Origin: an uncultured bacterium
GTDB taxonomy: Bacteria > SAR324 > NAC60-12
NCBI GenBank assembly: GCA_964010765.1
Contig: CAXGMD010000024.1
Span: forward strand, 1 to 39,320
Reading direction: 5' to 3'
DNA length: 39,320 nucleotides
The translations under genes and the position numbers were made by a program. Position 1 is the first letter of the stretch, and every line of letters starts with the position of its first letter. The notes under the pieces were generated by a model. The model saw only the letters and a program-made list of their open reading frames with translations, was not told where the DNA came from and did not search any database. Below are positions 9,621-32,895 of this stretch, one piece after another.

Positions 9621-9654
9621 AAAACCTTGTACAACCTAAGAGTTGGGAGATAGC

Positions 9655-10977
9655 TCAACGGGAAGCAGCGACCTTTTCTACGTTTTGTCGAGGTGCTGAT
9701 CCACGTGAATCGTTGTTGGCAGCGTCGGCGGCTTCCGGCTTGCCGGGACGCTCACGCCTTCGATTTTGGTCAGGTGCTCCTTCCTGGATAGATCGCCCCT
9801 CGAGCAGAGCGTTCACTTCAGTTCCACTGGGTAGTGAACCTACAGGAGTCAGTGTCAGCAAGTCGCCTGCAGTTAATCCACTACTGATCACAGCTTCTTC
9901 TGCATTGCTCCAGAGAATGTTAACTGGTTGACGATGGAGCTTATTGTCGCGAACCAAGACTACCTCGTTACCCTGATAGATGGCCTGACGTGGAACCACC
10001 AAGGCGTCCTTGATCAATCGGCCTTCAATTTCAGCTGCTACAAATTGTCCGATCTTCAGGGGTGGCTTCCCGTCTTTCTGTGGCTCATAAGGATTACGAA
10101 TCTGTGCCACAACATGTAGTTGTCGACTACTGGCGTCAAAGACTCCCTCTGTACGAGTGATCTGGCCTTCCCATGGAAACGACTGCTGACCGGTGCGTGC
10201 TTCAAACTGAACAATGGGGCCATTTTGCTGCTGTTTGCGGCTTGAACGATATTCTTCTGGAAGATTTACGTATTCCAGCTGTGCACTATGCAAAGGCAAC
10301 CTAACCTCAACGTAATCAATCGAATAGATTTTAGCGAGCTGTGTTCCGGTCCCGACATACTGGCCAATGTCTACCATTTGATCCATGATGCGTCCGGCAT
10401 ACGGAGCAACTACACGTGTGCGCTCCAGATTTCGTTTTGCTTTTGCTAAGCGAATACGTCCCGCTTCGATCGCTGATTTGGCAACCTCCAACTGGGGTCT
10501 GCGCATTGCCAGATCACTTGGAAATCCTTGTTGGCCAAGGCGTTGCCAGTTGCGAATAGCCTGCTGACTACGTGCCTGCTCTTCTTTAAGTGTCAGATAG
10601 GATTGCGTCAAGGCCGTCTCTGTCAGGCGAACCTCGGCTTCGTATTCGGTAGGATCAATTTCTAGGAGCAGTGCCCCTTTTTCAAAAAAGCCACCATCCC
10701 GGAAGCTCGGCGCAATCCGTAAAATATTTCCCGATACCTGTGAAACTAGCGTGCTTTGGGTGCGGGGCTGGATAGTACCGAAGGTGTTGACGTTGATTTG
10801 ATAATCGGTGGGTTTCACCTGAATCGCTTCAACGGTGAGACGGGTCGCAGGAGGAGGAGGCCTTCTTTGGGCTTCGGTTTTCTGATCTAAGATGGTGCGC
10901 GTACCCCAAACGCCACCACCAATGACCACCACAAGCAATACGATGCGGAGAATCAGTCGAAACCAGCGCATAGTCAT
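9655..10977 (-). CDS. RND efflux membrane-fusion (periplasmic adaptor) subunit
   Basis: N-terminal TM anchor, lipoyl-like SQVSG, coiled-coil hairpin, APYAG; ATGA overlap with the upstream OMF gene. Confidence 0.93.
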   Translation of the reverse strand: MTMRWFRLILRIVLLVVVIGGGVWGTRTILDQKTEAQRRPPPPATRLTVEAIQVKPTDYQINVNTFGTIQPRTQSTLVSQVSGNILRIAPSFRDGGFFEKGALLLEIDPTEYEAEVRLTETALTQSYLTLKEEQARSQQAIRNWQRLGQQGFPSDLAMRRPQLEVAKSAIEAGRIRLAKAKRNLERTRVVAPYAGRIMDQMVDIGQYVGTGTQLAKIYSIDYVEVRLPLHSAQLEYVNLPEEYRSSRKQQQNGPIVQFEARTGQQSFPWEGQITRTEGVFDASSRQLHVVAQIRNPYEPQKDGKPPLKIGQFVAAEIEGRLIKDALVVPRQAIYQGNEVVLVRDNKLHRQPVNILWSNAEEAVISSGLTAGDLLTLTPVGSLPSGTEVNALLEGRSIQEGAPDQNRRRERPGKPEAADAANNDSRGSAPRQNVEKVAASR

Positions 10978-12386
10978 CCTGAAGCAGGAGGTTGAGCCGG
11001 CAGAGCAAAATCACCACCAAGTGCCAGGTGGAGTTGAATGCGATTCTGCAGGCGGTCGCTGCGCACCTGAATCAGGGCGCTACGGGCATCAAAGGCACGT
11101 CGTTGAGCTTCCAGCACGGTTACGAAGGAAACAAGACCTGAGACATATTGTTCCTCCGCTAGATCTTCTGCATTTCGAGCTTCGGTTGCAGAACGACGAA
11201 TAGCAGCTTCCTGCTCAGCCAGCAATGTTTCTGCTGACAAGGCCGCCTCCACTTCTTGTAGGGCGTTTAGAAGAATTCGATTGTAGTCCAAGGCTACAAG
11301 ACGTGTTTGGATGTTAGCCTGTTCCAAATTTGCTTCGAGTTCCGTACCGTTCCAAAGAGGCTGGGTCAAGTTGACACCCAAGGACCAGATCATTGATTCA
11401 AGATCCAGTAATTTGTCTACATCTTCACTCCGAGCCCCTACGGAAGAGTTGAGACTGAATCTTGGAAAGCGGGCCTTGTAGGCCACCATTGCGTCTTGAT
11501 CAGCTGCCTTGAGACGTCGTTCCACGGCCAACAAGTCCGGTCGTCGCTGGAGTAGTTCTGAAGGGAGACCGGTTCCTGGCATCGCTGGTAAATCAGGTAA
11601 TTCTTCTGGGAGGCTCAGTTGACCTGAAGGAGTTCGCCCGAGCAAGGTTTCCAGGGACTGAATGGCCTTGGTGCGCTGCAGGCGTAACCCAATAATTCGG
11701 TTGTCTTGTGAGGCGACATCGGACCGCGCCAGATGCACATCCAGAGCGTCATTCAAGTTGAGTTGGAAGCTCTCTTCCACAACCTGTAGGCGATCCAACA
11801 GATTTGCCTTACGTTGCTGAAGTAGTTGTAATTGTGCCTCTGTTTCAATTGCATCGAACCAGGCCTTGGCAACATTCGCCGCAAGTGCTAGTCGGGCTGC
11901 TTGTTGATCCCCAATCTGTGCTTCAATTGAGAGCGCAGCAGAGCGTTCCTGATTGCTGAGGCGATTCCAAAGATCGGCTTCCCACGAAATCTGAAAGTTG
12001 AGATTAAAATTCTGGGTATAGTCTCCCAAGTCAGGTGTGAGACGGCTGTAACTGTGATTGACACTGGTGCCAACGCTCGTGTTGAAATCAGGACGATTAC
12101 TGACTCCCAAAGCTTTCAGCCTGCTTTGAGCGAGTTCAATCCGTAGCACTGTAGCCTGCAATCCAGGGCTGTTCTCTTGAGCTTCCTTAATCAAGGCCTG
12201 AAGTTGCTCATCCCTGAAATCTGCCAGCCAAGGTCGCACCTCTGCATAGTAAGCAGAAGGATCACTCCAATTTTGTGGTAGAGTTGGTTCTAGCTTGGTT
12301 GGTGTAGGTTCGGGCAGGTTCGTGCACCCAATCCCCAAACAGCAAGCCAAGATCAACCATCTTCCTTTAGGAAAACAGCTAAACAC
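10974..12386 (-). CDS. Outer-membrane efflux factor lipoprotein (OprM/NodT family)
   Basis: GTG start, lipobox LGIGC, SWEADLW, PSELLQRRPD, LHLALGG motifs. Confidence 0.93.
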   Translation of the reverse strand: MFSCFPKGRWLILACCLGIGCTNLPEPTPTKLEPTLPQNWSDPSAYYAEVRPWLADFRDEQLQALIKEAQENSPGLQATVLRIELAQSRLKALGVSNRPDFNTSVGTSVNHSYSRLTPDLGDYTQNFNLNFQISWEADLWNRLSNQERSAALSIEAQIGDQQAARLALAANVAKAWFDAIETEAQLQLLQQRKANLLDRLQVVEESFQLNLNDALDVHLARSDVASQDNRIIGLRLQRTKAIQSLETLLGRTPSGQLSLPEELPDLPAMPGTGLPSELLQRRPDLLAVERRLKAADQDAMVAYKARFPRFSLNSSVGARSEDVDKLLDLESMIWSLGVNLTQPLWNGTELEANLEQANIQTRLVALDYNRILLNALQEVEAALSAETLLAEQEAAIRRSATEARNAEDLAEEQYVSGLVSFVTVLEAQRRAFDARSALIQVRSDRLQNRIQLHLALGGDFALPAQPPASG

Positions 12387-18891: not shown

Positions 18892-19791
18892 TCAAGCCCG
18901 CCCGTCCAAGTAGCTCAGCACCGCTGGTCCATACACCGCAAAAGACTTGTAAATCTGAAGATCTTCGGGCCAGTGACGTAGTGTTTGGGCCAACTGGTAA
19001 GCTTCTGAATCCTTCAGTTCCGCCAGTGGGCACTGGAGTATCCGGATGGTAAAGAGAATGGCACCTGTCTTGGGAAGCCTGCGGAGTGTCTGGCGTTCCA
19101 AGCGCAAGAACACTTCTGTTCCAGCATTTTCTGAGGTGAGGTTGGGTGCGGCTTCTAAAACTCCATGACCTCCCGGCTGAAAGAGTGTTGGGTCCTCATT
19201 CAAGCTCCAGTTGACACGCCACATCGGCTTCTCTGGTGTCAGACGACCCATAAACTGATTCACTGGGGCATTGATCTGCTCCCTGTATCCCGGCACTGGA
19301 TCATGGATTTCGGACATCCGGCGCCCAATCTTCTCCTGTAGATTCCAACGAGTAGGGAAGCATAGTGCTGCTGCGGTCAAACGATACTCTCCAGCATCCT
19401 CGGCATCCTCTGGAACTGCCTGCATCACGCAGAGATCTTCCTGTACCAACCGCCCAGCCAATTCCAGCGGATGCATTGTTCTAACGGCCATTTCAAAAGT
19501 TGTTTGCCCAGGAGCCAGACTCTTGTCTTCCTGAATCTGTTGAAAGCGCTCCAGATGCTGTGTTTCAAGAAATGTGAGAACCAGTTCGAGTATCTCCGTG
19601 CTGGCGGCATGTGCTTCAGGGCAGGCCTGAAACACTTCATCTCGACGCTGATCGAGAAGTTCTCTCCTCAGAGCAACCTCTGTGTCGTAGCGGCCATCTA
19701 GCCAGAGCCAGTCTGCTGGAGCAAGCGGACGTAACCCCATTGTCCAGCGGTGTGGCTTTCCATCAAAAGGGAGAGGAAATGGGAAGGGCAT
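18892..19791 (-). CDS. DUF3445 / heme-dependent oxidative N-demethylase alpha-subunit family protein
   Basis: MGLRPL....WL, VQEDL, LCFPTRW..EKIG, IHDPVP, RVNW, RLERQTLRRLP..GAILFTIR motifs. Confidence 0.88.
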   Translation of the reverse strand: MPFPFPLPFDGKPHRWTMGLRPLAPADWLWLDGRYDTEVALRRELLDQRRDEVFQACPEAHAASTEILELVLTFLETQHLERFQQIQEDKSLAPGQTTFEMAVRTMHPLELAGRLVQEDLCVMQAVPEDAEDAGEYRLTAAALCFPTRWNLQEKIGRRMSEIHDPVPGYREQINAPVNQFMGRLTPEKPMWRVNWSLNEDPTLFQPGGHGVLEAAPNLTSENAGTEVFLRLERQTLRRLPKTGAILFTIRILQCPLAELKDSEAYQLAQTLRHWPEDLQIYKSFAVYGPAVLSYLDGRA

Positions 19792-20418: not shown

Positions 20419-20814
20419 TCAACTACCGCTACCGATAATCGCAATGGCTTCAACCTCAACTAACAAAGAAGGAAGGACCAGTGCAGGAGTGGAGTAGGAA
20501 GCACTAGCTGGAACACCGGCTGGAAAAGCTTCATTGCGCGCTCTACTAAACTCGCCGTATTGAGACATATCAGTCAGGAATGTGTTGATCTTGATTACAT
20601 CAGCCATTGTTGCTCCAGCAACAGCTAGCAGACTCTCAATATTTTTGAAAACCTGACTAGATTGGGTGTAAACGTCCTCGCCAATCACATTGCCCTCACT
20701 GTCTAGGGCCACTAAGCCAGATGCATAGATAGTGTGCCCAACCTTTACGCCGGCACCTATATTATATTTCTTTGTCCAAGCCCATCCTGGATCTAAACGT
20801 TCTTGTTTCTGCAT
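20419..20814 (-). CDS. RidA/YjgF/UK114 family protein
   Basis: IYASG, Q...VFKNI..LL..AG..M.DVIK, catalytic-type R in ARNEAF, VEVEAIA. ATG 20814 has an AAGGAG RBS, so the ORF-track start at 20859 is too long. Confidence 0.9.
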   Translation of the reverse strand: MQKQERLDPGWAWTKKYNIGAGVKVGHTIYASGLVALDSEGNVIGEDVYTQSSQVFKNIESLLAVAGATMADVIKINTFLTDMSQYGEFSRARNEAFPAGVPASASYSTPALVLPSLLVEVEAIAIIGSGS

Positions 20815-21039
20815 ATGACTCCTTGTTGCTGAATAATCTATTCGCATAAGACACAACACCCGAAATTATTAGAAATACGGATATTAAGCAAATTTATTTG
20901 GGTCAAACAAAGGTCATTATTGACAAGGTGGGATTACTAATGTTGGACAATCACGCACACAGATCGAAAAGATATTTCTGAATACGTGACGATGCGGAAG
21001 GAAAGTGTCTCACCAAGCCTTCCGAAGCAACTTTAATGA

Positions 21040-21180
21040 CTAGAGTCCGACGATACTGTATATAGAGGAGAAGAGTTCGGGTTTCCAGAAACTAACCAAG
21101 CTCAATAACCACACCGTGCTACCAGTCAGAACGCTCCAAACCAAAATTCTCTTCCAACGACGAAAATCAGCAGGTGCCAT
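21040..21180 (-). CDS. Putative 46-aa single-pass small membrane protein (below the ORF-track cutoff)
   Basis: GAGAGG RBS 5 nt before ATG 21180. MAPADFRRWKRILVWSVLTGSTVWLLSLVSFWKPELFSSIYSIVGL: basic patch then a ~20-aa hydrophobic helix. Hairpin CGGAAGG/CCTTCCG downstream. Confidence 0.55.
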   Translation of the reverse strand: MAPADFRRWKRILVWSVLTGSTVWLLSLVSFWKPELFSSIYSIVGL

Positions 21181-21453
21181 ACAGACCTCTCATGGTGAGG
21201 GTGAACGAATACAAGCCTGATGTAGGAAATATCCACGCTGGTCAAAATTTCCCACAAATTGTCTCACTGACTGAATTTGTGAAGTGCATCAGTGATAGAA
21301 AAGTTGTATCAGCTTAGCTTCTGTGTCAGAGCATATTGCTGTAATTTTCAGATTTACAGTAGCCAACATTTATTAATAAATCAATAAATATAAATATACA
21401 TACATTTATTTATTTTTACAAATCATAAGTTATCGTCACACTATAATCAAAGG

Positions 21454-23367
21454 TTGCATAAATTGATTTCTAAACACCTGACCTCTGAATCAATCATCTA
21501 CAGTACATCAAAAAATCTCGTTCAAGAGTTTGCGAGTAGAGGGGTTGCCGTTCTTTGTCCAGAAAGTCTAGGAGTCTCTTCTGAAATCCATCAACGTATT
21601 TACGAAAAGGAAAAGAAAGCAGTTCAGGATCAGCTACGAATTACTCCTGAAGTGATTCCAGAGATTTTTGATATTTTGAACGCACCCGGATTGATCGACG
21701 CCTGTGATCGACTTGTCGGCAAAAACTGGGCGATTGTGCCTTTCATTCATAATGCTCCTTTCATCAGCGGGGCTCGTGACCAACACTGGCACAAAGACGA
21801 TAATGCTCCTTACAATGCTCGCAAACAGAGACATCACCAAGCGATCCAAATTGAGATGCTTTACTACCCACAAGATGTTTCATCAGAGATGGGACCAACA
21901 GCGATTGTACCGTTCAGCCACTACTGGACTTTCAACCACGAGGAGAACCACGATAACTTTGCAGGAGCTGATCACATTGACTTTGGTTACTTAATCGAGG
22001 GCTTGGAGAGCATACCCGTTAGTGGGCCTGACTCCAAATACACTTTGGAAGACATTATTCAGCGCAAAACCAAGCACGACCGTAGAATGATGGAAGCCGT
22101 TTCAGGGCTAAACTGGCCACTGACCAGTGTCTTTGAAGTTGCCCCACTGCGGGCCGGGAGTGTCCTTCTCTATTCTCACAACACTTTCCATCGTGGGAAT
22201 CATCGAAGAGATGATTGGCGTCAATGGACAGAAAATCCAAGGTTTATGTGGAGATTTTGGATTTATCGCACAAATGAACCCTCGGGGACGGACTCAGGAG
22301 AGGTGGACTGGTGTGAGGAGAGCGTGGATCCTCTCACAGGCTTTGATCTGACTGAGGTGAGTTCTGGAATCAAGAGCACCTGGCGTTACCACAAGCATTG
22401 GCTAGAAACTGGTAAACCACCATCGCCAAAAATCGACGATACGATCCAATCTAATGAATATCTGAAAAAACAGGCCTTACAACTCTTCGGGCAGATGCTG
22501 GAAAAAGGAGATGAAAAGGAACCCATCCGAATTGGTGCTGCTTACGAACTTGCAGCAATCAGGGATCAGGTACTTGCCAAGGTACTACTGCGGAAAACAC
22601 TTTTGAATGAGCGTGAAAGTGTCAGAAGAGCTGGAACCTATGGACTTGTCGCTCTGGGTACTGCCGCCGAAGATGTATTTTTAGAGACGATCAAATCACC
22701 AATTAAATGGCTGCGGAAGGCAGGTGTCTACGGATTGGGTGAAGTGAGTACACTGAACCAAGAAATCTTTGATGCGGTCAAGGGATGTTTACTGGAGGAT
22801 GCGTCCAAATATGTGCGTTCTGTCGCTGCGGGTTCCTTGGGGTGTCTCGGTAGACGTACGATTGCATCGGGGCAAGGACTAGAGTGGATTCCAAAATGTA
22901 TCGAGGTTCTCATCCGAAGTCTTCAGCAGGAAGAGAATCGGCTCTCCATGGATCGGGTACAAAAGAGAAACATCAAGTTCGTAAGACCAACGGATGAGTG
23001 TGATGTCTGTGAGGGAATGGGAATTGATTTTGGGATTGAGAGATTTGAGCCAGTCCGCTCGACAGTTCGTGAGAATGTCCTATGGGCGCTGGTGATGCTC
23101 TGCTCTCACGGAGAGGAAGTCCTCGGTGAAAATCTAGACTCTTTACTAGAGGAACTTAAGAAAATCATCAGAGAAGACCAGAATGTGATTTCTGTTGGTT
23201 TCGCAATGGATGCACTCAGCCGACTTGCCCACTTGAGAATTGGTGAGGAAGCTCCTTCCACCTCCATCATTGAGTTAAGAACTGATCTAGAGACGATTCT
23301 CAATTCATCACCGATTCAGTGTTGGGAATCCTTGGTTCGATCCGGGTTGAGGCCAGCGTCTCCCTAA
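21454..23367 (+). CDS. Phytanoyl-CoA dioxygenase (PhyH, Fe/2OG) domain fused to HEAT repeats
   Basis: QHWHKD (HxD), YYPQDV..MGPT.IVP.SH, distal FHRG. C-terminal HEAT units: IRIGAAYEL, VRRAGTYGL, LRKAGVYGLG, VRSVAAGSLG, VRENVLWAL. TTG start uncertain (21454 or 21463). Confidence 0.85.
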   Translation: MHKLISKHLTSESIIYSTSKNLVQEFASRGVAVLCPESLGVSSEIHQRIYEKEKKAVQDQLRITPEVIPEIFDILNAPGLIDACDRLVGKNWAIVPFIHNAPFISGARDQHWHKDDNAPYNARKQRHHQAIQIEMLYYPQDVSSEMGPTAIVPFSHYWTFNHEENHDNFAGADHIDFGYLIEGLESIPVSGPDSKYTLEDIIQRKTKHDRRMMEAVSGLNWPLTSVFEVAPLRAGSVLLYSHNTFHRGNHRRDDWRQWTENPRFMWRFWIYRTNEPSGTDSGEVDWCEESVDPLTGFDLTEVSSGIKSTWRYHKHWLETGKPPSPKIDDTIQSNEYLKKQALQLFGQMLEKGDEKEPIRIGAAYELAAIRDQVLAKVLLRKTLLNERESVRRAGTYGLVALGTAAEDVFLETIKSPIKWLRKAGVYGLGEVSTLNQEIFDAVKGCLLEDASKYVRSVAAGSLGCLGRRTIASGQGLEWIPKCIEVLIRSLQQEENRLSMDRVQKRNIKFVRPTDECDVCEGMGIDFGIERFEPVRSTVRENVLWALVMLCSHGEEVLGENLDSLLEELKKIIREDQNVISVGFAMDALSRLAHLRIGEEAPSTSIIELRTDLETILNSSPIQCWESLVRSGLRPASP

Positions 23368-23487
23368 TTGATTCGGCATTAAAGAAGCCAGCTTCACAAC
23401 CCCAAGAAACCAATCTCCGTTCACATCTTCCAGAATCCAACTCAGCACTTCGCACTCTCTCATTCAGGCTAGAGTGTAAAAGTTTGA

Positions 23488-23501
23488 CTGAAACGATTCC
23501 A
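23488..23501. promoter_or_regulatory. LacI/GalR-type operator-like site upstream of the isomerase-moc operon
   Basis: CTGAAACGATTCCA (reverse complement TGGAATCGTTTCAG) resembles TGNAANCGNTTNCA and overlaps a TTGACT hexamer. Confidence 0.35.
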
Positions 23502-23539
23502 TGATTCAGGTTTTACGACAGGCAATAAAAGGAAAAAAT

Positions 23540-24334
23540 ATGTCCTATCAATTCCCACTAGCAGTCTGTGCCGAAATGCTCTGGCAAGATAAGCCGATCG
23601 AGTGGCGTGTGAGCAAGTTGACGGAAATGGGATTTGCTGTGGGTTTATGGAATTGGCCAGCTCATGACCTGTACAAGCTTGAGAAAACCAAGGCCAATTT
23701 TTCAATCATGAATGGCTACCTGCGAGGACGTCTTGCTGACGATGAGGGAGCAGCAGAACTCCTTGCTACAGCAAAAGAGACCATTGTTGTTGGGAAACGA
23801 CTCAACGTGGATCGACTGAACCTCCATGGCACCGGTTTGGGCGAGGGAGGATTGCCAGTACAACCTTGTGAAACAGTAACTGGAGCGATGTGGCTGAAAG
23901 CTGTGGATACACTAAATCGTGTCGCAGACCTGGCTGACAAAGAGGGAGTTGTCTTTGCTCTTGAAAATCTGAACCTGCCGGTGGACCACCCAGGAGTACC
24001 TTTCGCTTTGGCGGAAGACACCCTAGCTTTGGTTGCTGCAGTCAACCGCCCCAATTTGAAGCTCAATCTGGATTTATATCATGTGCAGATTGGCGAAGGG
24101 AACCTGATTGAAATGTGCCGAAAATGTCTACCCTACATTGGTGAAATCCAAGTTGCCGATGTGCCAGGTCGGAAGGAACCTGGAACTGGAGAAATCAATT
24201 ACCCAAAGATTGCCGAAGCTCTCTATCAAATGGGCTACCGGGGACCTGTTGCCATGGAAGCGTACGCATCTGGTGATCCCGAAGAGGCAATTGAAGCATT
24301 TCAAAAGGCATTCACAATTGCTGATGCTCGTTAA
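23540..24334 (+). CDS. Hydroxypyruvate isomerase (Hyi)-like / xylose-isomerase TIM-barrel protein
   Basis: LENLN..VDHPG, LNLDLYH.QIGEGNL, EIQVADVPGR.EPGTGEINY, GY.G.VAMEA. ATG 23540 with AAGGA RBS. Confidence 0.88.
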   Translation: MSYQFPLAVCAEMLWQDKPIEWRVSKLTEMGFAVGLWNWPAHDLYKLEKTKANFSIMNGYLRGRLADDEGAAELLATAKETIVVGKRLNVDRLNLHGTGLGEGGLPVQPCETVTGAMWLKAVDTLNRVADLADKEGVVFALENLNLPVDHPGVPFALAEDTLALVAAVNRPNLKLNLDLYHVQIGEGNLIEMCRKCLPYIGEIQVADVPGRKEPGTGEINYPKIAEALYQMGYRGPVAMEAYASGDPEEAIEAFQKAFTIADAR

Positions 24335-24366
24335 TTCAAGAATATAAATACCGATACAAGGACATC

Positions 24367-24678
24367 ATGACCAAATGGGTTCAAGTCTGTGCTGCTGATG
24401 ATATTGAAGAAGAAGATGTGATTCGCTTTGATCACGGTGATCGAACGTTTGCGGTCTATCGTTCTCCAGATGATGAATACTACGCTACCGATGGTCTGTG
24501 CACTCATGAAAAAATTCATCTGGCCGATGGCCTCGTGATGGATAATGTCATCGAATGCCCAAAGCACAACGGCAGGTTTGACTACACCGATGGTAGCGCA
24601 TTGGGAGCCCCCGTTTGCGTAAATCTACAGACTTATCCTGTAAAGGTAGAAGACGGCCTCGTATTTATCAGCTTGTAA
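24367..24678 (+). CDS. mocE: Rieske 2Fe-2S ferredoxin, MocE-like
   Basis: CTH...CPKH Rieske ligands. DVIRFDHG.RTFAVYR and HLADGLVM match the MocE family as I recall it. AAGGA RBS. Confidence 0.88.
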   Translation: MTKWVQVCAADDIEEEDVIRFDHGDRTFAVYRSPDDEYYATDGLCTHEKIHLADGLVMDNVIECPKHNGRFDYTDGSALGAPVCVNLQTYPVKVEDGLVFISL

Positions 24679-24693
24679 AGCAAAGGTAGTCTG

Positions 24694-25914
24694 ATGGAGT
24701 CCCTCACGATCATTGGTGCCGGTGAAGCAGGCACCCGAGCTGCCCTCCATTTGCGAGAAAGCAACTGGGATGGTGAGATCGTTTTGATTGGCCAGGAACC
24801 CCACACACCCTACGAACGCCCTCCCCTTTCCAAAACTTTACTCGCCGAAGGCATTCCACCTCCCTTGTTATCCTCTGCCGAGCAGCTGCAAGAACTTCAA
24901 ATCCAATTTCTACAGAGTAGCCAGGTCGCTGAGATTGACCGTCAATCCCACCGGCTGCGACTCCAAAATGACGAGTTCTTTCCTTACAATAAATTATTGA
25001 TTGCCACAGGAGCGAGTGCTCGCAAACTGACCTGCACCGGAGGTGAGCACGCTCTTGTTTTGCGTAATCTGGACGAGGCCCTTGCATTTTGTTGCTTGCT
25101 GGCTCCAGGCAAACACCTGATTCTGATTGGAGCAGGTTTCATTGGCTTGGAATTGGCGGCCAGTGCCCGAAAGGTAGACTGTAAAGTAACTGTTTTGGAG
25201 ATGGCGCAAAGAATCCTTGGACGTGCTGTACCGCCCGAGGTTGCGGAGGTTGTTGCCTCTGAACACAAGCGACAGGGTGTAGAGATTCGATGTGATATCG
25301 AATTGGATCAGATCCAGGCATCGAAAAGTGGCTACACCATTGAATTGAAGAATGGTGAGTCCATTTCAGGTGATTTGGTTGTCGCTGGAATTGGTGCTGT
25401 CCCTGAAGTTGCCTTGGCAGAAGCAGCGGGCTTGGATATCGAGAATGGGGTTTCTGTCAATGCGTTCCTGCAGACCTCGGATCCAGATATTTACGCGGTA
25501 GGTGACTGTTGCTCCTTTCCTCATCCTCTGTATGAGCAGCAACGTATGCGCCTGGAGATGTGGCGTTGCGCCCGAGATCAAGCAGAGTGTGCCGTGCAAA
25601 ATCTTTTGGGGGAAACTAAGGAATTCAGCGCTATCCCATGGTTCTGGAGTGATCAGTTTGAACTCAGTTTGCAGGTGGCAGGGCTTCCTTCTTTTGCAAA
25701 ACGAGTCATCCCACGAACCCGACCGGATGGAGTAACGATCTATTTCGGATTGAATGATCAGGAACAGTTGGTTTCTGCAGCTGGAATAGGAACTGGAAAC
25801 AGTGTCGCCAAAGATATTCGTCTAGCCGAAATGTTGATTGCTGCCCAAAAAACGATGAATCCAGCAGAACTCTGCGATCCCAAGCTGAATCTCAAGAAGC
25901 TCTTGAAGAGCTGA
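24694..25914 (+). CDS. mocF: FAD-dependent ferredoxin reductase (MocF/HcaD-like)
   Basis: IIGAG, PYERPPLSK, IATG, IGAGFIGLE, TSDPDIYAVGD, PWFWSDQ, DIRLAEMLI. Confidence 0.88.
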   Translation: MESLTIIGAGEAGTRAALHLRESNWDGEIVLIGQEPHTPYERPPLSKTLLAEGIPPPLLSSAEQLQELQIQFLQSSQVAEIDRQSHRLRLQNDEFFPYNKLLIATGASARKLTCTGGEHALVLRNLDEALAFCCLLAPGKHLILIGAGFIGLELAASARKVDCKVTVLEMAQRILGRAVPPEVAEVVASEHKRQGVEIRCDIELDQIQASKSGYTIELKNGESISGDLVVAGIGAVPEVALAEAAGLDIENGVSVNAFLQTSDPDIYAVGDCCSFPHPLYEQQRMRLEMWRCARDQAECAVQNLLGETKEFSAIPWFWSDQFELSLQVAGLPSFAKRVIPRTRPDGVTIYFGLNDQEQLVSAAGIGTGNSVAKDIRLAEMLIAAQKTMNPAELCDPKLNLKKLLKS

Positions 25915-25948
25915 CCCGCAAACATCACCCATCTCTTTGACTCTGTAT

Positions 25949-26737
25949 ATGACTAAGGTCGTTTTCCTCTCTCATGGAGGAGGTCCCCTACCCTTGCTGG
26001 GCGATCCCAATCATATTGAGCTGATTCAGCATCTTCGGCAGCTCTCGCAGGACTTGGAAGCGCCTAAACAAATTCTGGTGATCAGTGCCCACTGGGAGGC
26101 TAGTGTGATCCAGATTACACATCACTCCAATCCTCCACTGCTTTACGACTACTACGGCTTTCCAGAGCAGTCCTATCATCTTGATTATCCAGTTCCCGGT
26201 TCACCAGCGCTAGCAGAGGCCGTCCAGGGGCAACTCAGAAAACAAGGAATCGCTGCGGAGTTGGAGCAAAGCCGCGGACTGGATCACGGCGTATTTGTAC
26301 CGTTGATGCTGATGTATCCTAACGCCGACATTCCCTGCATCCAGGTTTCCCTGCAGCAGAGTCTTGACCCATTGGCCCATTTGCAACTCGGGCAGGCCCT
26401 GGCTTCTCTGGATCAGGAAGGGTTACTGATTCTCTGCTCAGGGTTTTCCTTTCACAACATGCAGGCTTTCTTCCAGCAGGGTGCAGGAATTCCAGATGCC
26501 AAGAATTTGGCTTTTGAGACTTGGCTGAAGGAGACTCTGAACAATCGTGACTTCTCGGAAACAGAGCGGTGGGAACGCCTGCGGAATTGGGAACGCGCTC
26601 CAAACGCAAGATACTGTCGCCCTCGAGAGGAGCACCTGTTGCCGCTGCTTGTTTGCTATGGTGCTGCTCAACGCCCTTGTAAACGAGTAGATACCGTTAC
26701 AGTACTGGGCAAGCAGGCTAGCTTCTTCATCTGGTGA
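25949..26737 (+). CDS. DODA-type (LigB/YgiD-like, class III) extradiol ring-cleavage dioxygenase
   Basis: SHGGGP, ISAHWE, YDYYGFP, RGLDHG, SFHN, EEHLLPL. ATG 25949 preferred. Confidence 0.9.
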   Translation: MTKVVFLSHGGGPLPLLGDPNHIELIQHLRQLSQDLEAPKQILVISAHWEASVIQITHHSNPPLLYDYYGFPEQSYHLDYPVPGSPALAEAVQGQLRKQGIAAELEQSRGLDHGVFVPLMLMYPNADIPCIQVSLQQSLDPLAHLQLGQALASLDQEGLLILCSGFSFHNMQAFFQQGAGIPDAKNLAFETWLKETLNNRDFSETERWERLRNWERAPNARYCRPREEHLLPLLVCYGAAQRPCKRVDTVTVLGKQASFFIW

Positions 26738-26792
26738 ACGCACATTTCTTCAGATTGATGGAATTTCCCTCCAGTAAGTGAGCTACAGGGCA

Positions 26793-26821
26793 TTGCACTC
26801 TGATCCCTGAACCGCTATAAC
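26793..26821 (+). promoter_or_regulatory. sigma70 promoter upstream of the mocD-like gene
   Basis: TTGCAC-N17-TATAAC, followed directly by the LacI-operator-like GCGCAAACATTCCC. Confidence 0.55.
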
Positions 26822-26880
26822 TGCGCAAACATTCCCTTCTTCCTTTTCTTCTCCAATCAATCCTTATCAGATCTGAAACC

Positions 26881-27933
26881 ATGGCGAGTACAACTATCCA
26901 CCGAGATTACAGCCTCATCGGACCAGAAGCCCAAAAAGCGGAAGAGAAAGGACTGGCCTCCGCAACTTGGTACGCCACGCCTATCCCCCGCAAACGTATG
27001 AAGGAATTGATGCGTCGCTCAGATCAACCAGCGATTCGAGACACAGCCATCTGGTTGGGCCTGCTTACCCTGACAGGTGGATTTGGTGTGTATTTCTGGG
27101 GAACCTGGTGGTGTGTGCCCTTCTTTTTTGTTTATGGGATTCTTTACGGCAGTGCCTCGGATTCCCGTTGGCACGAGTGCGGTCATGGTACCGCATTTCG
27201 CACCCAGTGGATGAATCAAGCTGTGTATCAACTCGCCTGCTTCATGATTATGCGAAGCCCCACTGGATGGCGTTGGTCCCACACACGTCATCACACAGAC
27301 ACCATCATCGTCGGTCGTGATCCTGAGATTGCCATTGGTCGTCCTGCTCGGCTGTTTCGACTGTTCCTTAATTTCTTTGGCCTGATCGATATTCCAATCT
27401 CACTGGCAAAGACGGTCCTACATTCTTTTGGACAGTTGACTGCCGAGGAGGCTGACTACATCCCCGAGATGGAAAGACACAAAGTTTACAATGTGGCCCG
27501 TGTCTGGATCGTGGTCTACGGACTGACTGCTGCGGCCAGTCTGATCTATCAGAGTTGGCTTCCATTGATGCTGATCGGCTTGCCCCGCGTGTATGGAACC
27601 TGGCTACACATCGTCTTTGGTCTGACCCAACATGCTGGCCTGGCTGAAGATGTCCTTGATCATCGCCATAACACGCGCACTGTTTACATGAACCCCATCT
27701 TTCGTTTTCTCTACTGGAACATGAATTATCACGTGGAACATCACATGTTTCCGATGGTTCCATATCACGCACTCCCTGCTCTTCATGAAGAGATGAAAGC
27801 CGATACGGCCCCTGTTTATCGGAACATGATTGAAGCCTATCGTGAGATCATTCATGCCTTGTGGAAGCAATCCAGTGATCCTGATTTTTTTGTTCCCAGG
27901 GCTATTCCAAACTCAGACCCAATAAGTGCATAA
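26881..27933 (+). CDS. mocD: Membrane fatty-acid-desaturase-family di-iron oxygenase, MocD-like
   Basis: Three His boxes (HECGH, HTRHH, HVEHH); RDYSL.G..., MRRSD.PAIRDT and GRDPEI segments. Clustered with MocE/MocF-like genes. Confidence 0.85.
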   Translation: MASTTIHRDYSLIGPEAQKAEEKGLASATWYATPIPRKRMKELMRRSDQPAIRDTAIWLGLLTLTGGFGVYFWGTWWCVPFFFVYGILYGSASDSRWHECGHGTAFRTQWMNQAVYQLACFMIMRSPTGWRWSHTRHHTDTIIVGRDPEIAIGRPARLFRLFLNFFGLIDIPISLAKTVLHSFGQLTAEEADYIPEMERHKVYNVARVWIVVYGLTAAASLIYQSWLPLMLIGLPRVYGTWLHIVFGLTQHAGLAEDVLDHRHNTRTVYMNPIFRFLYWNMNYHVEHHMFPMVPYHALPALHEEMKADTAPVYRNMIEAYREIIHALWKQSSDPDFFVPRAIPNSDPISA

Positions 27934-28102
27934 TCAAGCCCGGTAGCAGTAGCCTGAAACAGATTTGAGAGGTTTTTTAACTATCATTACTGGGAGGTGA
28001 TTTTTTAGGTTTTCTCAACTTCAAAACTTACCATTTGGAAAATTGGTAATCTTGCCATCTAAGAGTGATCTTGAGAGTAGATTTGCATTCAGGTTTTTGA
28101 TC

Positions 28103-29626
28103 ATGATTTCAATCTTTAAAAAGACTGTAAAAATCAGAAAATCCCTGGAATCAGTTCTCATTGGAATCATCGTTCTTATTGTTTCCATCACAACCACACA
28201 CGCTCAATCCAATGAGTTGCTTCAATCAAGAATACGACTCTTTGAAGCCTGGCTTAATACGCTAATGAGTGATCAATCCTTACGTGGAGTTTCTGTCAGC
28301 CTTGTTCAGAATCAAAAGCTTATTTACGCAAAGGGATTTGGGGTTTCCGACTTCGAAAAACAATCTCCAGCTACTGAGTCAACCAATTATCGAATTGCTT
28401 CAATCACAAAGCTCTTTACGAGTATTGCTTTGATGCAACTCGTAGAGCGTAAGAAAATTTTCTTAGACACTCCTGTAGTTGAAATAATTCCTGAACTGAG
28501 AGCAATCAAAACGAATGGTCATTCTGTAGAAGACATCACTATCAAGTCCATCCTGACCCACACTACGGGTCTACCCACCAATCCCAATTTCCTCTTGGAC
28601 AAAAGAGGTCAGAATCAGGCATTGGTCCTTGATGAATTTTTGAAGGGATTGGCCCAACAATCTTTGTTGTTCCCACCAAATCGAATCCATAAGTACTCCA
28701 ACTTGGCAATGAATCTTGGTGGATTGATTGTAGAGCGCGTCTCCGGATTGTCTTATGAGCAGTATATCCAAGAAGTTATCCTCACACCTTTACAACTGGA
28801 GTCCACTCGCTTTCCCACTGATTCGGAAACTACAAAGGTGATTGGCTACAGCCAAATCGTTGGAGGCCAACGATTGAAAAATGAATTTCCTGAAATGGCG
28901 AGTGTCTTAGGATTGCCATCTTCCGGACTCATTTCTACTGTCACGGATCTGGCTAAATTCATTAGTTGGCATTTTCGTACACTGAGTGCGGAGGACCAAA
29001 CACTCCTTGCAAGAGCCACCTTGTCTGAGATGCTGAAGGTTCAGTGGGTACCATTGCCCATTGAACTTCACCCCATGTTAAATACTGCGTTAGCTTTACT
29101 TGCAAACACCCTGGAACTTGGTGGAACAGGGCTTGGTTATTTTCGAGAAAAAGAGTTTGTTCTGCACAGTGGAGGCTTGATGGGATTTGCTTCAGAACTG
29201 GTGATGGATAATCAAAACAAACTTGGAGTCGTTGTCCTCTCCAATACGGTTGAGGCACCTGTTTATTTCAACCATCCCCAAAGCATCTCAAGGAATTTAT
29301 ATGAAATGATCGGTAGAGTGTTGGCTGATCCTAAATCGTTTGATCGGCCCCTGTTATATGCTGAATATGAAAATCTCTATTCAGATGATCACCACTGGCA
29401 CTACTACGTTACAGAAATGGGAGAGAATTTGATTTTGCTAAATATGCGAGAGGGAATGCCGCTGGCTAGGCCCGTTGTACTTTCCAAGGTGGGAACTGAT
29501 CATTTTGTTGATCCTAATCATGAAGGTATCTATGCAGGGGAGTTTTCCGTCTACTTTCAACGAGATCAGAATGGTAAGGTCGACTCAATGATCGTGAAGA
29601 ATAATAAGCTATATCCTAAAGATTAA
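28103..29626 (+). CDS. Exported serine hydrolase (beta-lactamase/AmpC-like) with C-terminal extension
   Basis: Signal/anchor ending THA-QS, IASITK (SxxK), ILTHTTGL, YSN, HSGG. ATG 28103. Confidence 0.87.
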   Translation: MISIFKKTVKIRKSLESVLIGIIVLIVSITTTHAQSNELLQSRIRLFEAWLNTLMSDQSLRGVSVSLVQNQKLIYAKGFGVSDFEKQSPATESTNYRIASITKLFTSIALMQLVERKKIFLDTPVVEIIPELRAIKTNGHSVEDITIKSILTHTTGLPTNPNFLLDKRGQNQALVLDEFLKGLAQQSLLFPPNRIHKYSNLAMNLGGLIVERVSGLSYEQYIQEVILTPLQLESTRFPTDSETTKVIGYSQIVGGQRLKNEFPEMASVLGLPSSGLISTVTDLAKFISWHFRTLSAEDQTLLARATLSEMLKVQWVPLPIELHPMLNTALALLANTLELGGTGLGYFREKEFVLHSGGLMGFASELVMDNQNKLGVVVLSNTVEAPVYFNHPQSISRNLYEMIGRVLADPKSFDRPLLYAEYENLYSDDHHWHYYVTEMGENLILLNMREGMPLARPVVLSKVGTDHFVDPNHEGIYAGEFSVYFQRDQNGKVDSMIVKNNKLYPKD

Positions 29627-29698
29627 GTTTTCCTGCTGCTTGTTTTTGTGCTCTATATTGGTTGAAATTATTACTGTCACTTCCCACTATTTAAGCTT

Positions 29699-29929
29699 AT
29701 GAACAAAAACACAAAAACAACGGTTATCATCTTATCGTCATTGGCAGCACTTGTAGGAATTGGCATCGCCACGGGCTTCATCACATTCAATCCCATTGAT
29801 AAATCTAAGCCTGCCTACGCCAAGGATCAGCAGTGTTTTGAAGAACTCAAAGCGAAACTGACTCCTGATGAGATGATGGAGATTATGAAAAAGAAGACAA
29901 TGACTCAATCTCACTGCGACTTTCTTTGA
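29699..29929 (+). CDS. Small hypothetical membrane-anchored protein
   Basis: 76 aa; basic N-terminus, one TM helix, two Cys in the soluble part. Confidence 0.6.
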   Translation: MNKNTKTTVIILSSLAALVGIGIATGFITFNPIDKSKPAYAKDQQCFEELKAKLTPDEMMEIMKKKTMTQSHCDFL

Positions 29930-29968
29930 TCAAGTCAGCATGAGCAGAGATACAGCTTCACTTACTGC

Positions 29969-30550
29969 TTAAGTTCCGGGCTGAATCCAAGCATACTCCA
30001 TCTGCCTGGCAGTTCGCTCTGCTAACTTCTCTCCAGCGAATTTGGAGACTAACTCCAAGCTCAGATCTATCCCAGCGGAGATTCCTGCCGCAGTGAACAG
30101 CTTGCCTTGTTCAATCCAGCGAACACCCTCTCGAACCTGTACGTTGGGATAATTTCTCTGTAAATCCGGGATATCTTCCCAGTGAGTTGTCACTTCCAAG
30201 CCATCCAGCAACCCCGCCTCCGCCAATAAGAAAGCTCCTGTACAGATCGAAGCAATCACCTGCACTTTCTCAGCAGTCTCTCTGATCCAGTCGATCACTT
30301 CCCTCTTGTGAACTTCTTCCAGATGAACGCCCCCGACCACAATCAACAGATCCAATGCTGGCACATTCTGGATGGAATAATGAGGTATCACCTTGAAGGC
30401 TCCACGAGCTTCAACCAAGTTTTCACTCGCACCAACGAGCCAGATATTCCAATCCAATTTTGCGAGTCGGTTAGCAACACTGAACACCTCAAAAGGTCCT
30501 GAAAAATCCAAGACCTCTGCCTGATCGTAGAGGTAGATCCCAATGTTCAT
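29969..30550 (-). CDS. DJ-1/PfpI family protein (isonitrile hydratase-like clade)
   Basis: EVLDFSGPFEVF, SICTGA (nucleophile Cys), TTHW, TAAGISAGID, A..MEY; no AraC HTH. Confidence 0.9.
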   Translation of the reverse strand: MNIGIYLYDQAEVLDFSGPFEVFSVANRLAKLDWNIWLVGASENLVEARGAFKVIPHYSIQNVPALDLLIVVGGVHLEEVHKREVIDWIRETAEKVQVIASICTGAFLLAEAGLLDGLEVTTHWEDIPDLQRNYPNVQVREGVRWIEQGKLFTAAGISAGIDLSLELVSKFAGEKLAERTARQMEYAWIQPGT

Positions 30551-30665
30551 GGGTTCACGGAAGATAAAAGGATTATTTCAGCGCTGAAACCAAAGCGAGG
30601 AATAGCCTGTAAGGGCTCGGATAAAAACAGCTGTGCGTGGTGACGGAATCAGATTTGTCAGAATC

Positions 30666-31469
30666 TCAGGCGTGACCGACCTTTAAATCGCTACCTGCCC
30701 GGTTCTCACCTCGAATCAGCCAAAGGGGTCTTTTCGCAAAATTAATCAGATAACCGGAGCCAGTGCCCGTATCAATCAAGTCTCGGTTGAACAGGCTCGT
30801 GGAGGGCATGTAGCGAATGGCCAGACCAGCCCGTCGTTTGCCCGAGCGATTTGGATGGGAGCCATGCACCAAGTGGACGTCATGCATGGAGAACTGCCCT
30901 GGCGCGAGCTCCAAGCTGACTGTATTTTCTGGATCAATCCGACCATCATTCACTCGTTGATTGAGCACAAGATCTTCTCGAGATTCTTTTTGATGTGTCA
31001 GCGATTGATGCCGATGTGAGCCAGGAACAACTTGCATACAGCCGTTCTCTTCAGTCACATGATCCAACGCAACCCAAACGGTACAAGTCGCCAAAGGACG
31101 GATCGGCCAATAGGCCCCATCCTGATGCATCGGCACTTCCATGCCATCTGAGCCAGGCTTGCAGAAGAGTTGACATCCCCACAGAATGATATCGGGGCCA
31201 ATCAACTGTTCTACACAATCCACGATCACTGGATCCTTGGCCAATTCCATGAAAGCCTCATCACCGCGCACACCCTCCTGGTTCAAGCCACTGATGTGGA
31301 CACTGACCAGCTTCTCTGGTCGCACCTCGGGATTAGCCAGCAACACACGATCAACGGCAGCCATCAAATCGGTTAACCGAGATTCTGGTAACTGACAGTC
31401 TGGGATTAAGTAGCCCTCTTCTTGATATTGTTGAATCGCTTCAGCAGAGAGTGGGGCGTTGGTTGTCAT
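30666..31469 (-). CDS. Phytanoyl-CoA dioxygenase family protein
   Basis: FCKPG, HQD, WVALD...ENGCM.VVPGSH, HGSHPNRS..RR. Confidence 0.9.
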   Translation of the reverse strand: MTTNAPLSAEAIQQYQEEGYLIPDCQLPESRLTDLMAAVDRVLLANPEVRPEKLVSVHISGLNQEGVRGDEAFMELAKDPVIVDCVEQLIGPDIILWGCQLFCKPGSDGMEVPMHQDGAYWPIRPLATCTVWVALDHVTEENGCMQVVPGSHRHQSLTHQKESREDLVLNQRVNDGRIDPENTVSLELAPGQFSMHDVHLVHGSHPNRSGKRRAGLAIRYMPSTSLFNRDLIDTGTGSGYLINFAKRPLWLIRGENRAGSDLKVGHA

Positions 31470-31503
31470 CGATACCTTTTCGGAGTCAAGTCATTAAACA
31501 ATG

Positions 31504-32280
31504 TCACTGGGCCACCCAGCCGCCATCAACAGGAAGAGTGTGTCCCGTGATCATTGCAGCTGCGTCACTAGCCAGAAAACGAATTGCATCTGCCACCTCG
31601 TAGGTTTCTACCATCCGTCCGAGTGGCGTTCGTGCGAGTAATTTTTCTTCCATCCCATCTTCTGCCAGTAGACTTTGAGTCAGGGGGGTTCTCACGAAAG
31701 CAGGAGCCACGGCATTGACCCGAATACCTTGTGCTGCCCAATCCAGCGCTAAGGAGCGTGTCAGATTGACCACTCCCCCCTTGCTGGCCTGATAGGCAGG
31801 ATTGGGATAGACCCCACCTCCAATCAAACCCATGATCGAAGCCACATTGACAATGCTCCCCTTGCCCTGCTCGAGCATCGTCTTGGCAGCTTCTCTGGAG
31901 CAAAGAAAGGTCCCCGTCAGGTTGATGTTGAGCACTTCCTGCCAACGCTCCAAGGGCAACTCAGTCGCTTCCATCCGGGCTCCTGTTCCAGCGGAATTGA
32001 CCAGAATCTCATAGGAACCCAACGCTGCCACTTTCCTCATGACCTCTACAACGGAATCTTCCCTAGTCACATCCAGATACATGATCTCGATGGAGATGCC
32101 CTGATCATTGAGTTGAGCCTGAGCTTTCTGCAAAGCGGCTTCATTCCGATCGCCAATCACGACCTGTGCTCCTGCTTGAGCAAACACCTTGGCGGTCTCC
32201 AGACCAATGCCACTAGCTCCTCCTGTGATCAATGCTGTTTTCCCATCTAGAGAAAGGCGATCGTTTGGCTTGGTTGTCAT
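31504..32280 (-). CDS. SDR family NAD(P)-dependent oxidoreductase
   Basis: TGGASGIG, VNSAG, catalytic S...YQASK, NAVAP, VDGG. Confidence 0.93.
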   Translation of the reverse strand: MTTKPNDRLSLDGKTALITGGASGIGLETAKVFAQAGAQVVIGDRNEAALQKAQAQLNDQGISIEIMYLDVTREDSVVEVMRKVAALGSYEILVNSAGTGARMEATELPLERWQEVLNINLTGTFLCSREAAKTMLEQGKGSIVNVASIMGLIGGGVYPNPAYQASKGGVVNLTRSLALDWAAQGIRVNAVAPAFVRTPLTQSLLAEDGMEEKLLARTPLGRMVETYEVADAIRFLASDAAAMITGHTLPVDGGWVAQ

Positions 32281-32313
32281 GTGTCACTCCCTAGTAGAGC
32301 AGCCAACACTGGT

Positions 32314-32895
32314 TCACACTAAATCGCAGGCGTCCGCTGGCATCCAGTGCGCGTCTTGATCTAACCACTTGACGTTACAACCGATCGGATTGGTCAAGGG
32401 GACACTTACCGATTGTCCAGCCGTAACTTCTGCAAGCGCCTTTTCCAGGTCATTGACCTGCATCTTTGAAGTATCGCGTGGTTGATCTACTCCACGGCCG
32501 CAGTACGCCAGCTTACGATCCGCATCAAAGACGTAAAAGTGAGGTGTCCGAAGTGCTCCATAGGCCAAAGCAACCTCCTGGGAAGCATCCCTCGCATAGA
32601 TCCACGGGAAGTTGTGTTCCTTCATCCGCAAAACCATCTGGTCGAAATCATCAGTGGGATTGGTCTTCTCACTGTTGGAATTGATTCCAATAAAGGCCAC
32701 TCCCTTGTGCTGAAATTTCTCAGCAGTGGCCCTTGTGACTTCATCAGATCCAACGACGAATGGACAGTGGTTGCAGGTAAAGAAGACCACGAGCGTGGAA
32801 GCAGATTCAAAGTCAGCTAGGCTGTAGTTTTTACCATCAGTACCAGCGACAGAAAAATCAGGAGCAGTTGCTCCTAGTTCAAGGGTAAAGGACAT
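32314..32895 (-). CDS. Thioredoxin-fold (AhpC/TSA, PRX-like) protein
   Basis: [13 protein letters not shown] (CxxC), YGA.RTP.FYVFD, IGCNVKW. Confidence 0.9.

Follow-up and report, generated by a model that had tools for sequence, protein, structure and literature searches.

We analysed a cluster of five genes (positions 23540–27933) in a 39,320-nucleotide stretch of DNA, hereafter the window, from an uncultured bacterium of the SAR324 lineage (GenBank assembly GCA_964010765.1, contig CAXGMD010000024.1). The genes encode a TIM-barrel protein (TIM), a Rieske ferredoxin (MocE), a ferredoxin reductase (MocF), a YgiD/DODA-like extradiol dioxygenase (DODA) and a membrane di-iron oxygenase (MocD). 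The locus is a member of the known and widespread MocDEF kind, with a local rearrangement. Judging from sequence comparisons, it is moderately likely that this three-component oxygenase O-demethylates a methylated cyclitol, with TIM as a helper, and feeds an iol pathway encoded elsewhere in the genome. An earlier prediction, made from the nucleotide sequence alone (the original prediction), had described the cluster as a remodelled system of the MocDEF type in a bacterium outside the rhizobia, which our comparisons bear out, and had proposed two pathways for it. The first, O-demethylation of cyclitols, is favoured by the comparative context, which points to a methyl-cyclitol or a methyl-sugar as substrate; the second, formation of a catechol for extradiol cleavage and isomerisation, is not supported. 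The locus reveals no new pathway, and the main value of the analysis is the removal of the catechol-cleavage idea.

Gene order and components of the oxygenase

The window is the whole of one contig of a 3.86 Mb draft genome (266 contigs, 92% complete). The cluster consists of five intact open reading frames (ORFs) on the plus strand in the order TIM–mocE–mocF–DODA–mocD, with successive gaps of 32, 15, 34 and 143 bp (Table 1); ORF coordinates and matches to Pfam and NCBIfam agree with the gene order and the first three gaps given in the original prediction. Five further genomes of the genus and three metagenome contigs have the same order, which is therefore no assembly accident. The orthologous clusters in these genomes (G002, G003, G004, G005 and G007) encode MocD proteins 87–97% identical to that of the window. 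No orthologue of the cluster was found in three of the nine genus genomes, G001 (94% complete), G008 (93%) and G006 (68%).

MocD, the catalytic component, matches PF00487 with 134.9 bits (gathering threshold 29.7) and has all three histidine boxes of the fatty-acid-desaturase family: HECGH at 98, HTRHH at 134 and HVEHH at 284 (HX3H, HX2HH and HX2HH). It has no sequence match in the PDB at E ≤ 0.01. The Rieske protein exceeds the cut-off of TIGR02377, the MocE family (179.9 versus 136.15 bits), and its [2Fe-2S] ligands C45-T-H47 and C64-P-K-H67 (CxH...CxxH) are present. MocF matches PF07992 (225.7 bits) and PF14759 (63.6 bits), keeps both nucleotide-binding motifs (GAGEAG at residue 8 and GAGFIG at residue 146) and stays under the equivalog cut-offs of HcaD (347 versus 450) and AndAa (317 versus 650).

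The dN/dS values (Nei–Gojobori, each relative against the window) are 0.04–0.11 for MocD, 0.02–0.04 for MocE, 0.10–0.13 for TIM and 0.13–0.18 for MocF; MocD, MocE and TIM are under purifying selection. The corresponding values for DODA are 0.16 (against metagenome contig L103), 0.30 (G005) and 0.33 (G007). DODA is thus the least constrained of the five genes, yet it is constrained in the window's own sub-lineage.

MocD homologues and their sugar and cyclitol contexts

We used tblastn to survey 80 genome loci encoding MocD homologues 55–71% identical to the window protein, mostly from Alphaproteobacteria, with others from Actinomycetota, Verrucomicrobiota and Acidobacteriota. MocD–Rieske–reductase is the usual order. 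Rieske genes adjoin in 68 of the loci, LacI in 45, the reductase in 41, Gfo/Idh/MocA dehydrogenases in 37, a sugar-type binding protein in 32, a PanB-like gene in 26 and PurU in three. A TIM barrel of the window type was found in none of the 80 loci, and neither was DODA, in keeping with the earlier statement that DODA lies outside the described moc loci.

The window MocD is 58–63% identical to homologues on rhizobial plasmids. It is 60.4% identical to the MocD of a Phyllobacterium plasmid with the canonical rhizopine-type layout, that is Gfo/Idh/MocA, a sugar-binding protein, a MocR-type regulator, mocD, mocE, mocF, PanB-like and PurU; Sinorhizobium meliloti pSymB and Rhizobium etli pA carry LacI–mocDEF–PanB-like. 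Of the phylogenies of MocD, MocE and MocF called for by the original prediction, that of MocD was run. In this quick maximum-likelihood tree (86 rows, with G007 left out owing to its stop), the window MocD falls among homologues encoded beside MocE and MocF, and the MocD proteins of the genus and of G020, a genome of the same family, form one clade (SH-aLRT 98).

The G020 genes provide the closest comparison outside the genus. Its MocD (71% identical) is encoded inside an inositol cluster, with two Gfo/Idh/MocA genes and an SDR on one side and IolA, IolC and IolB on the other. Its MocE (86%) and the adjoining reductase MocF (57%) come after genes for an RpiR regulator, a sugar ABC transporter, a PanB-like protein and PurU. 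The last two are enzymes of folate-linked one-carbon metabolism; a one-carbon handling pair of this kind is expected if formaldehyde is released, and its recurrence fits formaldehyde release by an oxidative demethylase. In the stretches fetched from G020 (L100, L203 and L204), the G+C content is ~60%, compared with ~47% in the window.

A Pfam scan of the 32 window ORFs found no Gfo/Idh/MocA dehydrogenase, sugar transporter or DNA-binding regulator, as stated in the original prediction; the exporters that are present, an RND efflux system and a TauE protein, are unrelated to the cluster. The iolG, iolE and sugar ABC genes that it had suggested looking for elsewhere lie on contig C28 of the same genome, together with an RpiR regulator. 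C28 encodes an SDR, an ABC transporter, IolG, a second Gfo/Idh/MocA protein, IolC/J, IolB, IolA, RpiR, IolD and IolE. Equivalog cut-offs are exceeded by IolG (396 versus 355), IolE (390 versus 290), IolB (377 versus 205), the N-domain of IolC (376 versus 300) and IolA, the MMSDH (720 versus 448); IolD reaches 427 versus 715, with only the part inside the fetched locus scored. IolB is intact in all nine genus genomes, and the iol pathway is therefore core, with the MocD cluster accessory to it.

The TIM-barrel protein

TIM matches PF01261 with 104 bits. It stays well below the cut-offs for hydroxypyruvate isomerase (TIGR03234, 114 versus 353.45) and 2-oxo-tetronate isomerase (NF043033, 97.8 versus 325), and both equivalog matches are confined to residues 124–264. 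Its predicted structure (pLDDT 81.6) is nearest to 1k77 (YgbM/OtnI) and 3ngf (Brucella Hyi-like), followed by sugar 3-epimerases, YcjR and IolE; with YgbM, 3ngf and YcjR (6wn6), it has the TIM-barrel fold in common at Foldseek TM scores of 0.72–0.74. The sequence aligns with Hyi/OtnI over the C-terminal half, whereas the N-terminal half is divergent. The modelled fold suits an enzyme that would shift or invert a centre beside a carbonyl, and TIM is probably a Hyi/OtnI-like isomerase or epimerase of a keto-cyclitol or keto-sugar.

What sets TIM apart from Hyi/OtnI, besides the scores, is the genomic partner of its relatives, an inositol-type dehydrogenase. TIM is 74–80% identical to alphaproteobacterial proteins. 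From 216 plasmid records with a homologue, we examined seven loci (Sinorhizobium, three Rhizobium, Agrobacterium, Thioclava and Pantoea; 59–75% identical). In all seven, the TIM homologue directly adjoins a Gfo/Idh/MocA gene (iolG by name in one) and a sugar transporter, and in two of them, it lies within iolCDBE. YcjR functions with a Gfo/Idh/MocA dehydrogenase. Within the phylum, TIM has a match in five of 88 genomes, all five within the genus, and none in G020 or the other 82 genomes outside the genus. From these distributions, we infer that the genus assembled its own mocD, mocE, mocF and DODA at one site and added a TIM gene of alphaproteobacterial origin.

Two further observations concern these loci. 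A PhyH protein of ~390–400 residues (45% identical between locus L203 on G020 contig C67 and locus L215 on the Thioclava plasmid) and a PRK06198-type SDR accompany iol, TIM or mocEF genes in these two lineages, which are unrelated to each other. Both proteins may belong to an extended cyclitol gene pool as additional members. The TIM-barrel gene that follows mocF in Acidiphilium was considered as a relative of the window TIM and proved unrelated (BLASTP E values of 5.3 and 4.1).

DODA lies beside MocD in one genus only and is decaying in sister species

DODA is a LigB-fold protein (PF02900, 97.8 versus 26.3 bits). Full-length alignments were obtained with plant DODA (8in2, E 1e-43) and Escherichia coli YgiD (2pw6, E 1e-33), and His9, His48, His113, His169 and His229 lie within motifs aligned to 8in2 and 29ky. 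It thus has the fold and the histidine motifs of YgiD and of the plant 4,5-DOPA extradiol dioxygenases (2pw6, 8in2, 29ky and 9j2l; E about 1e-33 to 1e-44). It differs from them in staying under the YgiD equivalog cut-off (NF007914, 154.4 versus 233 bits) and in lying within an electron-transfer operon. PMC6426604 and PMC7533325 describe DODAs of bacteria.

We also surveyed 80 metagenome loci with DODA homologues. A MocD cluster adjoins DODA in only three (L102, L103 and L104), in which DODA is 84–99% identical and which thus come from the same genus. In 76, DODA is a stand-alone gene (49–57% identical), and L160 ends inside DODA. The DODA of G020 (63% identical) is also stand-alone, on a third contig. 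The placement of DODA between mocF and mocD, whose conservation the original prediction had wished to see checked, is therefore a feature of this genus only. In five metagenome loci, a DJ-1 homologue lies 2 kb from the stand-alone DODA; the intervening LysR and TPMT genes give no pathway logic for an association of the two.

Within the genus, DODA is degraded in three genomes. In G002, TIM and mocF have one stop each and DODA has nine, with mocE and mocD intact. In G004 (67% complete), TIM and mocE were not found, mocF has a frameshift, DODA has six stops and mocD is intact. In G007, TIM and mocE are intact, mocF has two stops, DODA has two stops and a frameshift, and mocD has one TGA. Contig L104, near-identical to G007, shares its DODA defects and has an intact mocD; TIM, mocE and mocF are not on this contig. 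Single stops also occur in some neighbouring genes of these drafts, and isolated stops may thus be assembly errors. However, six to nine stops in DODA together with a DODA identity of 41–71% cannot be explained in this way. DODA has the appearance of a local passenger that is decaying in sister species. It would be a translocated copy of a family gene that stands alone elsewhere, and is probably a genus-specific insertion outside the pathway of the oxygenase.

These results come close to the outcome that the original prediction had set against itself, a DODA position unique to this strain without co-expression, and a canonical trio with the other moc and iol genes elsewhere. The position of DODA is indeed limited, and iol genes, sugar ABC genes and RpiR lie on another contig; however, the position is shared with other genomes of the genus and is not unique to the strain.

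Proposed mechanism

In the mechanism that we propose, MocF would draw electrons from NAD(P)H and hand them to the Rieske ferredoxin MocE, which would in turn reduce the membrane di-iron enzyme MocD. MocD would hydroxylate the methyl carbon of an O-methylated cyclitol (e.g., a methyl-inositol), and the resulting hemiacetal would break down to the free cyclitol and formaldehyde. An inositol dehydrogenase encoded on another contig would then oxidise the cyclitol, and TIM, the product of the first gene of the operon, would isomerise or epimerise the keto-cyclitol to the form taken by IolE, IolD, IolB, IolC and IolA. DODA would be dispensable for this O-demethylation chemistry. The genes would be expressed as two units, TIM–mocE–mocF–DODA and mocD, the latter behind its own promoter-like element.

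Several observations weigh against cyclitol O-demethylation. The window lacks a dehydrogenase, a sugar transporter, a regulator and a one-carbon module, and the neighbours of the cluster are unrelated oxygenases and hydrolases (a PhyH–HEAT fusion, a beta-lactamase-fold protein, a HODM-like protein and a Rid protein). A sequence comparison of TIM with solved structures gave no significant match to an inosose isomerase (E ≤ 0.001). A literature search found no biochemical assay of any MocD-family enzyme, whose demethylase role is a model of 1998, and no bacterial methyl-inositol demethylase. DODA is intact here, 34 bp past mocF, with a dN/dS of 0.16 against its nearest intact relative; an RNA-library contig spans the mocF/DODA junction, and the spacer between DODA and mocD is covered by others. 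Finally, the decay in congeners strikes mocF and TIM as well as DODA, and the whole unit may therefore be dispensable.

If cyclitol O-demethylation is nevertheless the function, a salt-marsh and marine lineage outside Pseudomonadota joins the many bacteria that have MocDEF. The locus also offers two pointers for the family as a whole: a highly conserved TIM partner, found beside an inositol-type dehydrogenase at every plasmid locus examined, and a naturally occurring set of congeners with decay of mocF, TIM and DODA beside an intact mocD.

Alternative functions

The oxygenase might have been recruited to another small molecule (e.g., a methylated osmolyte or an ester) that is processed together with the co-directional PhyH–HEAT fusion and a secreted beta-lactamase-fold hydrolase. 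The seven genes from 21454 to 29626 are co-directional and contain no terminator-like site, compared with 9.3 in shuffled sequences; RNA-library contigs bridge mocD and the hydrolase; and the PhyH–HEAT gene, mocD and the hydrolase are intact and syntenic in G002 and G004, where mocF, DODA and TIM decay. A co-directional gene run is, however, weak evidence for a common pathway. The MocD, MocE and TIM families have sugar or cyclitol contexts elsewhere, and the PhyH–HEAT fusion or hydrolase of the window occurs in none of the 80 MocD loci (E ≤ 1e-8). We therefore regard this alternative as unlikely.

In the aromatic route, MocDEF would O-demethylate a methoxylated aromatic to a catechol, DODA would carry out extradiol cleavage and TIM would isomerise the product. 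This would account for an intact DODA with conserved histidine motifs lying tightly between mocF and mocD, for its constraint relative to L103 and for the RNA-library contigs that bridge both of its borders. The RNA libraries with matches carry the label salt marsh, and such habitats abound in methoxy-aromatics derived from lignin. Yet the association of DODA with MocD is confined to this genus in both surveys, and DODA is broken in G002, G004 and G007, of which the first two have an intact mocD and the third a single TGA in it. Moreover, an orthologue 71% identical to the window MocD is encoded within an iol cluster, the TIM family is, at the seven loci examined, tied to Gfo/Idh/MocA genes rather than to aromatic pathways, and the window contains no downstream meta-cleavage genes (hydrolase, hydratase or aldolase). 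The aromatic route is thus distinctly improbable.

We think just as little of the possibility that the cluster is a relic, an accessory module that is being lost from the genus and is intact here only since its decay has yet to begin. The three genus genomes in which the cluster was not found, and the stops and frameshifts in TIM, mocF, DODA and once mocD across G002, G004 and G007, would be expected of a module doing nothing important. However, all five genes have a dN/dS well below 1 when the window is compared with its nearest relatives, all motifs are intact, and RNA libraries of four studies contain the sequence.

It is very improbable that the YgiD-type dioxygenase is wired to the MocE/MocF chain in this genus, either to cleave a catechol made by the di-iron O-demethylase or to have its own iron re-reduced, as XylT does for the iron of catechol 2,3-dioxygenase; bearing on this idea, the window's sub-lineage has an intact, constrained DODA 34 bp past mocF, and the decay of DODA in G002 and G004 accompanies that of mocF.

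Transcription units and RNA libraries

The promoter-like element TTGCAC-17 nt-TATAAC upstream of mocD is kept in all nine genus sequences (as TTGAAC in G002 and G004), even though the upstream genes are dead in G002 and G004. This conservation hints at a promoter dedicated to mocD, with TIM–mocE–mocF–DODA as a separate unit. The element was not listed by our sigma-70 consensus scan, since its first hexamer matches at three of six positions. The same scan found no terminator and no plus-strand promoter inside the cluster, which says little because it is tuned to sigma-70.

A conserved block, GCACTTCGCACTCT, precedes TIM and resembles a block before mocD. The stretch around it is kept in an alignment of six genus sequences. 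The two blocks share the pattern GCAYT, 0–2 bases, GNACTCT (23445–23458 and 26790–26801, plus strand); the first is 95 nt upstream of the TIM start codon and the second 91 nt upstream of that of mocD. The pattern has two matches in the window versus a mean of 0.11 in shuffled sequences, which is weak evidence since it was defined post hoc from both sites, and with 15 matches it is not enriched genome-wide. No Rfam riboswitch or other RNA family was found between 17000 and 34500 (E ≤ 0.1).

Contigs from four RNA libraries (three salt marsh and one marine, from four studies) span 26–30 of 30 bins of the region 21000–30700. They bridge the TIM/mocE and mocF/DODA junctions, the DODA–mocD spacer (into mocD) and the mocD/hydrolase junction. 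They cover nearly the whole 9.7 kb, minus-strand genes included, and give neither strand nor level; DNA carry-over is also possible, and the bridging is therefore no proof of co-transcription.

Comparison with known MocDEF loci

The accessible text of PMC10107442, citing Bahar et al. 1998, describes MocD–MocE–MocF as the 'ferredoxin oxygenase' of rhizopine (3-O-methyl-scyllo-inosamine) catabolism in Rhizobium and Sinorhizobium. The window encodes three components of the same families in the order TIM-E-F-DODA-D instead of D-E-F, with mocD set apart behind 143 bp. It adds the TIM-barrel and DODA genes, and its host belongs to a small phylum. The 32 window ORFs include no nearby MocR, MocA, MocB, MocC, PanB-like or PurU gene, and the locus is thus not of the mocCABRDEF type.

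The oxygenase trio is also common to the mocDEF clusters with LacI, sugar ABC, Gfo/Idh/MocA and PanB-like genes on S. meliloti pSymB, R. etli CIAT 652 pA and Acidiphilium multivorum pACMV1. None of these has DODA, and pACMV1 has the sequence-unrelated TIM-barrel gene after mocF mentioned above. By analogy, these clusters and the window may share methyl-ether chemistry on sugars or cyclitols. In woody-host Pseudomonas syringae, mocDEF adjoins the alternative xylose-isomerase gene xylA2, as far as the accessible text of PMC5132102 goes. Like the window, this locus lies outside rhizobia, beside a xylose-isomerase gene, and is described there without mocCABR; the description, rather than a sequence comparison, sets it apart from the window by its different gene order and the lack of DODA. 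Pinitol use by Erwinia, according to PMC9788770, goes through the iol genes without need for the two demethylase genes tested, vanB1 and vanB2.

Neighbouring genes

Table 1. Features of the cluster and of its surroundings in the window
Feature	Position	Strand	Remarks
Beta-lactamase-fold serine hydrolase	2582–3685	+	
RND efflux system	5637–12386	−	Complete: AcrB-type pump of 1327 residues, membrane-fusion protein, outer-membrane factor
Haem-dependent oxidative N-demethylase alpha-subunit-like protein	18892–19791	−	PF11927, 253.6 bits; genus-conserved
Rid-family deaminase	20419–20859	−	Genus-conserved; just upstream of the cluster
PhyH–HEAT fusion	21454–23367	+	637 residues; PhyH-type 2-oxoglutarate oxygenase domain and HEAT repeats
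Conserved upstream block	23445–23458	+	95 nt before the TIM start codon
TIM barrel (xylose-isomerase-like)	23540–24334	+	ATG preceded by AGGA; longer frame from 23501
MocE-family Rieske [2Fe-2S] ferredoxin	24367–24678	+	TIGR02377
MocF-type FAD/NAD(P)H ferredoxin reductase	24694–25914	+	PF07992, PF00070 and PF14759
YgiD/DODA-like class III extradiol dioxygenase, LigB fold	25949–26737	+	PF02900; ATG start, TTG at 25937 also open
Promoter-like TTGCAC-17 nt-TATAAC	26793–26821	+	~60 nt before mocD, within the 143-bp spacer
MocD-type membrane di-iron oxygenase (fatty-acid-desaturase family)	26881–27933	+	PF00487; catalytic component
Beta-lactamase-fold serine hydrolase	28043–29626	+	Starts 109 bp past mocD; hydrophobic N-terminus
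DJ-1/PfpI protein	29969–30550	−	Stand-alone
PhyH oxygenase, SDR and redoxin-type protein	30666–32895	−	Conserved trio

The PhyH–HEAT fusion lies immediately upstream of the cluster and is intact even in congeners with a decaying cluster. Both beta-lactamase-fold serine hydrolases score far under all named beta-lactamase cut-offs. No other N-demethylase subunits were seen near the PF11927 protein.

The DJ-1/PfpI protein matches only the N-terminal half of GbdR/FtrA AraC-type regulators. We considered whether its gene is the head of a broken regulator of this type and found no helix-turn-helix remnant in the following 342 bp. The gene has four stops in G002, and it is 60–65% identical in G002 and G004, compared with ~90% for its neighbours. 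The PhyH and SDR proteins of the minus-strand trio are unrelated to those beside the iol and moc genes in G020 and on the Thioclava plasmid.

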